This document shows positions 24,055 to 24,062 of a DNA stretch of 64,000 bases, piece after piece. Source of the DNA: Escherichia coli (GTDB lineage: Bacteria; Pseudomonadota; Gammaproteobacteria; Enterobacterales; Enterobacteriaceae). The notes under the pieces were generated by a model. The model saw only the letters and a list, made by a program, of their open reading frames with translations, searched no databases and was not told where the DNA came from. Position numbers and translations under genes: made by a program. Position 1 is the first letter of the stretch, and each line of letters opens with the position of its first letter. The stretch lies in NCBI RefSeq assembly GCF_003991155.1, contig NZ_CP031293.1; one strand, 5' to 3'.

Positions 24055-24062
<8 letters not shown>

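Follow-up and report, generated by a model that had tools for sequence, protein, structure and literature searches.

Short overlaps between neighboring genes raise two questions, namely whether translation of the downstream gene is coupled to that of the upstream gene, and whether the overlap carries information on where the downstream gene starts. Both are addressed here for five overlaps in the window, i.e., the whole stretch of 64,000 nt of Escherichia coli DNA that was analyzed, which corresponds to the chromosomal region from araBAD to dnaKJ plus a small number of insertions specific to the strain. The reference was E. coli MRY15-117 (NZ_AP017617.1, positions 13031-77030, reverse complement), which shows a single mismatch to the window, at position 63462, and a 4-kb query around kefF/kefC found matches in 5,425 of 5,426 complete E. 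coli genomes, several of them at 100%. Exactly five of the 43 same-strand adjacent gene pairs in the window overlap: kefF/kefC by 8 nt, fixC/fixX and pdxA/rsmA by 4 nt, and surA/pdxA and ileS/lspA by 1 nt, which places all five stop/start distances between -8 and -1 nt. A sequence-only reading had listed the same five lengths, gene names and operon assignments, all of which are correct, and the RefSeq/PGAP boundaries of the MRY15-117 record coincide with those of the window's open reading frames at every one of the junctions. The operons concerned are kefFC, fixABCX, (lptD-)surA-pdxA-rsmA-apaGH and ribF-ileS-lspA-fkpB-ispH. In our assessment, these are likely five maintained overlaps in four known operons that fall into the three commonest spacing classes and into two junction designs, from which we infer coupling.

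The overlaps themselves are ordinary and already known and catalogued. All five K-12 pairs appear with identical distances in the supplementary table of Huber et al. 2023 (PMC10666635), where the cross-phylum medians are -4 for PdxA@RsmA (n = 464), -3.3 for FixC@FixX (n = 224) and +2 for IleS@LspA (n = 632), and a review of the Kef systems describes overlaps of a few bases between ancillary and transporter genes. The three commonest gene spacings in E. coli are -4, -1 and -8 nt, which form sharp peaks genome-wide. An enrichment of overlaps in the window was rejected, as the observed rate of 5/43 (11.6%) compares with about 15% published for most prokaryote groups (p = 0.67), and pairs spaced from -8 to +6 nt make up 9/43 (21%) in the window versus 707/2987 (24%) in E. 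coli (p = 0.86). The probability that an overlapping ATG is followed by 95 to 620 codons without a stop is 1e-2 to 1e-13, and each of the nine proteins exceeds its curated NCBIfam cut-off; taken together, the overlaps are therefore not chance. The gene boundaries in this part of the chromosome can be trusted, and the window follows the pattern of the E. coli genome as a whole.

Outside the junctions, the window differs from K-12 at several places. A strain-specific island absent from K-12 lies between apaH and folA (20128-21466) and encodes a DUF4291 protein, a hypothetical 149-aa protein and a 45-aa fragment of a CcdA-family antitoxin, beside which no toxin gene is annotated; the folA-apaH gap is a known site of chromosomal ccd systems. 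Further differences are an IS621 transposase between rluA and djlA (11196-12176), an MFS transporter and a GH31 glycosidase between rpsT and nhaR (51420-54872), and, from nhaA to mokC/sokC (57313-60961), an OmpK-like protein, a sulfatase and a protein annotated as 'IS1/IS1595 N-terminal zinc-binding domain'. Four RNA families exceed the Rfam gathering score in the window, i.e., the sok antitoxin sokC (61423-61575, plus strand), the ES003 sRNA upstream of carA (42262-42314, minus strand), naRNA4 next to rluA (10923-11002, plus strand) and tpke11 between dnaK and dnaJ (62960-63037, minus strand); no Rfam family matches at any of the overlap junctions.

Conservation was assessed in 80 Enterobacteriaceae loci with 10-kb flanks, obtained by a KefF scan with one genome per species, which include four of the junctions wherever the gene order is intact; ileS/lspA is represented in only six of them. 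The overlap of kefF/kefC measures 8 nt in 77/77 loci (22 genus-level labels) and that of fixC/fixX 4 nt in 24/24. The genes pdxA and rsmA overlap in 68 of 69 loci, by 4 nt in 52 and by 8 nt (ATGAATAA) in 16, the longer form being found in Kluyvera, part of Citrobacter and one unclassified Enterobacteriaceae genome; the overlap is lost in none of the 68 interpretable junctions. For surA/pdxA it amounts to 1 nt in 62 of 66 loci and is lost in three, in all of which the genes abut exactly (0 nt, TAAATG), and for ileS/lspA it is 1 nt in 6/6, a small sample. Ordinary gaps vary far more in the same loci, with 24 different values for kefC-folA, 19 for fixX-yaaU and 11 for fixB-fixC. Rigidity of an overlap is partly expected without coupling because any change inside it touches two proteins. 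The five overlaps are genuine and evolutionarily maintained. As an aside, a contig labelled Chryseobacterium sp. 18061 (L054) carries an enterobacterial kefFC nearly identical to that of Citrobacter sp. 18056 (L053) from the same study, and this assembly is probably mislabelled or contaminated.

The junctions differ in how the downstream start is equipped. Predicted Shine-Dalgarno duplex energies are -10.3 kcal/mol for kefC and -8.2 kcal/mol for fixX versus -1.9 for pdxA, -0.9 for lspA and +0.6 kcal/mol for rsmA; relative to medians of -5.9 in the window (52 genes) and -2.4 at random positions, the last three are among the weakest of the 52 genes, with rsmA the weakest of all. The sites of kefC and fixX lie within the upstream coding sequence and show synonymous-site constraint, and the remaining three junctions contain no such intragenic site. 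Two designs can be distinguished on this basis. In the first, kefF-kefC and fixC-fixX, the genes encode partners of a complex, as known from structures for KefF-KefC and from published annotation for FixC-FixX, and the downstream start has a strong embedded Shine-Dalgarno site kept at synonymous positions; in the second, surA-pdxA, pdxA-rsmA and ileS-lspA, the genes are functionally unrelated and the downstream start is without a Shine-Dalgarno site. The same division appears in Huber et al. 2023 (PMC10666635), where kefFC and fixCX are marked as complex-forming and the other three pairs as non-complex.

Initiation in the absence of upstream translation was taken from published INRI-seq data, which record in-vitro initiation on isolated fragments (-30 to +120) of every K-12 gene. 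Two of the five genes downstream of an overlap were detected versus 28 of 38 other genes of the window, a difference that is not significant (Fisher p = 0.15), as about 30% of all E. coli genes are negative in INRI-seq and three negatives in five are not exceptional. When pairs separated by up to 7 nt were pooled with the overlaps, detection amounted to 4/10 versus 26/33 (p = 0.044). The energetic cost of opening the start region separates detected from undetected genes (p = 0.03). Four near-abutting pairs that the sequence-only reading did not list are equally good candidates for coupling, namely fkpB-ispH (+1 nt, 45588-45590), rsmA-apaG (+2 nt, 18868-18871), apaG-apaH (+6 nt, 19248-19255) and caiD-caiE (+5 nt, 36456-36462). 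The gene ispH combines a Shine-Dalgarno energy of -9.3 kcal/mol with an opening cost of 11.8 to 19.3 kcal/mol and is INRI-seq negative and Ribo-RET positive in vivo; apaH and caiE are also INRI-seq negative.

At kefF/kefC (minus strand), the 8-nt overlap ATGGATAG spans 24055..24062, with the kefC ATG at 24062-24060 and the kefF TAG at 24057-24055. The upstream gene kefF (24055..24585, 176 aa) scores 265 bits against the NCBIfam KefF profile (cut-off 210), and kefC (22200..24062, 620 aa) scores 1163 bits from residue 1. The Shine-Dalgarno site of kefC, AGGAGG (24069..24074), is embedded in kefF codons Q171-E172-A173, 6 nt before the ATG, and its duplex energy is reached by only 0.3% of random positions. 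Synonymous diversity of the kefF codons CAG and GAG within the site is 0.03 and 0.00 versus a gene mean of 0.44. The run of synonymous invariance at the kefF 3' end is not significant as a scan statistic (720/5000 permutations), so that only the individual Shine-Dalgarno codons stand out. Initiation of kefC in INRI-seq was 0 CPM in five replicates despite abundant template (654 CPM), and the cost of opening its ribosome-binding site, 15.4 kcal/mol, is the fifth highest of the 52 window genes. Published K-12 Cappable-seq data place a single transcription start site (TSS) 31 nt before the kefF ATG and no further one within the gene, and consequently every kefC message carries translatable kefF. 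A dedicated hairpin hiding the kefC ribosome-binding site was rejected as unsupported, since the junction fold has no extra stability over shuffled sequence (z = 0.17) and the consensus structure of 77 sequences is not significant (z = -0.57), i.e., a conserved structure that sequesters the downstream ribosome-binding site was not found in the kefC junction folds. We read the modeled opening cost as generic GC-rich structure rather than a dedicated hairpin. Translation of kefF most likely opens this structured site so that the strong Shine-Dalgarno sequence can act, which would tie synthesis of KefC to that of KefF; structures of complexes between KefF and the C-terminal domain of KefC have been solved (3EYW, 3L9W, 3L9X).

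The second junction of this design, fixC/fixX (minus strand), has the 4-nt overlap ATGA at 26366..26369, found in the sequence and in PGAP. The coding sequence of fixC (26366..27652, 428 aa) is defined by sequence, PGAP and NCBIfam, and that of fixX (26082..26369, 95 aa) aligns with residues 1-95 of 95 of the NCBIfam FixX profile. The fixX Shine-Dalgarno site AAGGAG (26380..26385) lies inside fixC K423-G424-V425, and the codons AAA, GGA and GTG have synonymous diversities of 0.08, 0.08 and 0.17 versus a gene mean of 0.41. In INRI-seq, fixX starts on its own on the isolated fragment at about 22 CPM. With its own initiation possible, coupling at this junction would be optional and at most an enhancement. 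The fix operon is unexpressed under the conditions sampled by the K-12 TSS table.

The second design includes two successive junctions on the plus strand, both identical in the sequence and in PGAP: surA/pdxA, which share one A in TAATG (17061..17061), and pdxA/rsmA, which share ATGA (18047..18050). Sequence, PGAP and NCBIfam agree on surA (15775..17061, 428 aa), pdxA (17061..18050, 329 aa) and rsmA, also named ksgA (18047..18868, 273 aa). Initiation of pdxA in INRI-seq was 0 CPM in all five replicates, and rsmA initiates weakly by itself at about 9 CPM. Their start regions are open and weakly structured, with low opening costs of 5.9 kcal/mol for pdxA and 7.2 kcal/mol for rsmA.

The third junction of this type, ileS/lspA (minus strand), is a single A in TGATG (46620..46620), again the same in the sequence and in PGAP. 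It joins ileS (46620..49436, 938 aa; sequence, PGAP and NCBIfam) to lspA (46126..46620, 164 aa), which aligns with NCBIfam lspA over residues 1-164. In INRI-seq, lspA initiation was 0 CPM in all five replicates. The K-12 Cappable-seq table, used here for the strand that carries kef, fix and ileS, places two TSSs inside ileS, at K-12 position 25014 (window ~46813, minus strand; score 12.7; 193 nt upstream of the lspA ATG) and at 24922 (window ~46905, minus strand; score 3.5; 285 nt upstream). The stronger one is similar in strength to the promoters upstream of ileS, which are also present, and downstream of it the ileS frame offers only the weak start codons TTG (46760) and GTG (46697). On messages from these internal sites, lspA cannot be coupled to full-length ileS translation. 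The gene is without a Shine-Dalgarno site and without initiation on the isolated fragment, yet TSSs internal to ileS feed lspA messages.

For these three junctions, we propose that a ribosome finishing the upstream gene may be the main route to the downstream start, by reinitiation or by clearing of the site, and that output would be a low, fixed fraction of that of the upstream gene. For pdxA and lspA, an upstream ribosome is probably needed, and reinitiation fits them better because their open start regions contain nothing that recruits a free 30S subunit; rsmA would follow a mixed route. Translational coupling at the five pairs is plausible. No direct coupling experiment was found in the literature for any of them, but for the distance classes -4, -1 and -8, coupling of other native pairs of E. 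coli has been demonstrated. In the work of Huber et al. (PMC6728339; PMC10666635), four of five native E. coli -4 pairs were coupled, the last 15 nt of the upstream gene were enough for coupling, and coupling collapsed within about 20 nt of spacing. The exception was bioBF, which is uncoupled though its Shine-Dalgarno site is weak, and overlap alone is accordingly no proof of coupling. The statement of the sequence-only reading that the overlaps are consistent with coupled translation therefore holds in general, given the classes coupled elsewhere, and does not extend to the overlap as evidence in itself.

How the coupling would operate can be read in another way. Upstream ribosomes could merely melt structure around the downstream start, after which a free 30S subunit initiates de novo and the terminating ribosome itself does not reinitiate. 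This explanation for all coupling is possible if somewhat doubtful. It agrees well with kefC, whose Shine-Dalgarno site is strong and conserved, whose start region is costly to open and which is silent in vitro; for this gene, unfolding that gives access to the Shine-Dalgarno site is the better fit, and ispH, located 1 nt after fkpB, repeats the pattern. It is also the model favored by Saito et al. 2020 (PMC7538156) over dominant reinitiation, on the observation that depletion of RRF leaves the ratios of downstream to upstream ribosome density unchanged genome-wide. The difficulty lies with pdxA and rsmA, which are open and without a Shine-Dalgarno site, so that unfolding would expose nothing that recruits the 30S subunit, and even the kefC junction is without significant conserved structure. 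Reporter work, moreover, assigns the steeply distance-dependent coupling to termination-reinitiation, and the sufficiency of 15 nt together with this distance dependence fits the latter. A 2025 review comes to no decision between the two mechanisms.

Less probable, and in our view unlikely, is that the pairs are not functionally coupled, i.e., that downstream genes initiate independently de novo and that overlaps arose by compaction and drift of stop and start codons and were kept since changes hurt two proteins. Several observations point away from obligatory coupling: fixX and rsmA initiate alone in vitro, TSSs lie inside ileS upstream of lspA, and bioBF shows that a native -4 pair can be uncoupled. 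Genome-wide, initiation is largely independent of Shine-Dalgarno pairing, and RRF depletion is without effect on neighbor ratios. The toggling of pdxA/rsmA between 4 and 8 nt and of surA/pdxA between 1 and 0 nt likewise indicates that the exact length is not fixed. Independent initiation does not readily account, however, for pdxA and lspA, which have no Shine-Dalgarno site and are silent on isolated fragments, nor for kefC, silent despite its -10.3 kcal/mol site and transcribed only from upstream of kefF. It also sits poorly with the near-complete retention of the overlap at pdxA/rsmA and surA/pdxA, where the only losses are abutting genes, and with the sharp distance peaks at -4, -1 and -8. 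Coupling with two designs remains our preferred reading.

A more speculative proposal, which we regard as unlikely, is that junctions without a Shine-Dalgarno site are regulated relay points rather than passive overlaps. The rsmA start is surrounded by a block of about 115 nt (17989-18105, plus strand) comprising pdxA codons ~310-329 and rsmA codons 1-19, which hardly varies among 68 distinct Enterobacteriaceae sequences, even at the synonymous sites of the two genes. Within pdxA, no run of synonymous invariance is stronger than that at codons 316-323 (0/5000 permutations match). The consensus fold of the junction has z = -3.85, and compensatory changes occur in only 2/33 pairs, a covariation signal that is uninformative given the near-invariance of the block. 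Six codons ahead of the pdxA stop, a conserved in-frame ATG (18030) opens a mini-ORF, M-I-V-N-T-Q, that ends in the ATGA overlap. The block may serve in autoregulation by RsmA/KsgA, as a promoter or as a relay ORF; as a relay point, it could be an operator for such autoregulation, or the mini-ORF could deliver ribosomes from transcripts that start inside pdxA, and the lspA start may act similarly on ileS-internal transcripts.

A second conserved block in pdxA (17852-17892, plus strand) contains the motif TGCTAAAAT (17875-17883), which resembles an extended -10 element (TGnTAAAAT), is made in part of an invariant rare Leu codon, CTA, and lies ~165-172 nt upstream of the rsmA ATG. Judged by its sequence, the motif is a candidate internal promoter for rsmA. 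About half of the ksgA transcripts reportedly start at a promoter inside pdxA, a result attributed to Roa et al. 1989. Canonical two-hexamer promoters were not found on the sense strand near the conserved pdxA block or the ileS tail. A promoter-like site on the antisense strand (17908-17879) was rejected, as the K-12 Cappable-seq table contains no TSS on that strand between K-12 positions 49,820 and 55,337.

The sequence-only reading also took the overlaps as support for the chosen start codons. This argument is circular, since choosing the start is what creates the overlap; instead, the starts are backed by PGAP, conservation, in-frame stops and protein profiles. Start-codon conservation was evaluated from -40 to +45 codons for candidates not severed from the gene by an in-frame stop. 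At each of the five junctions, 100% of loci have ATG or GTG at the annotated start, and no other start codon nearby is as well conserved, with the exception of a Val-GTG at codon +18 of lspA (6/6, n = 6); the nearest competitor in rsmA is an internal Met at +40 (96% of loci). In E. coli, the reading frame is closed by a stop 3 codons before the rsmA start, 4 before that of lspA and 6 before that of pdxA, and the NCBIfam profiles begin at residue 1 for KefC, FixX and LspA. The INRI-seq table of alternative initiation sites has no entry for any of the five downstream genes. The five annotated starts are sound on evidence other than the overlap. That one or more of them are misannotated, with the true start further downstream and the overlap an annotation artefact, is very improbable: the first five codons of pdxA are poorly conserved (mean column identity 0.67), and at none of the five starts do the in-vivo Ribo-RET values that accompany the INRI-seq data form a peak, which is probably a matter of low expression, but PGAP agrees on the boundaries, the alternative-start table is empty for these genes, profiles extend to the first residue, and the sole equally conserved alternative, lspA +18, falls inside the first membrane helix of LspA. 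Two longer reading frames were observed in the window. That of kefC reaches 32 codons further upstream (24062-24158) to a TTG, a position at which only 65% of loci have a start codon, and that of caiD would start at 35563, abutting the caiC stop, with the PGAP start at 35671, where K-12 has a strong INRI-seq peak.

Beyond quality control of gene boundaries, the overlaps as such matter little. The refinement offered here is that the equation of overlap with coupling hides two designs, and that promoters inside ileS, and possibly inside pdxA, make matters less simple. Edits near the 3' ends of surA, pdxA, ileS or kefF may alter expression of the next gene, which is relevant to engineering and knockouts of operons with essential genes.

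Compared with known systems, the five junctions have the same geometry as the termination-reinitiation overlaps of Huber et al. (PMC6728339; PMC10666635) and belong to the same three most frequent E. coli classes, although the pairs used in those experiments were hyfHI, astDB, ydbH/ynbE, menDH and bioBF and include none of the five studied here. Most overlapping pairs have an intragenic Shine-Dalgarno site, whereas the pdxA, rsmA and lspA junctions are without one. Classical coupling by unfolding, as in rplK-rplA and rpmI-rplT, is resembled by kefC and ispH, which likewise have good Shine-Dalgarno sites and are silent in isolation; unlike in those operons, no conserved sequestering hairpin could be shown in the junction folds computed here, and the junctions without a Shine-Dalgarno site fit unfolding poorly. 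Among the KefF/KefC and KefG/KefB operons, of which kefGB lies outside the window, the locus examined here is the E. coli kefFC locus itself, with no difference from the known system.
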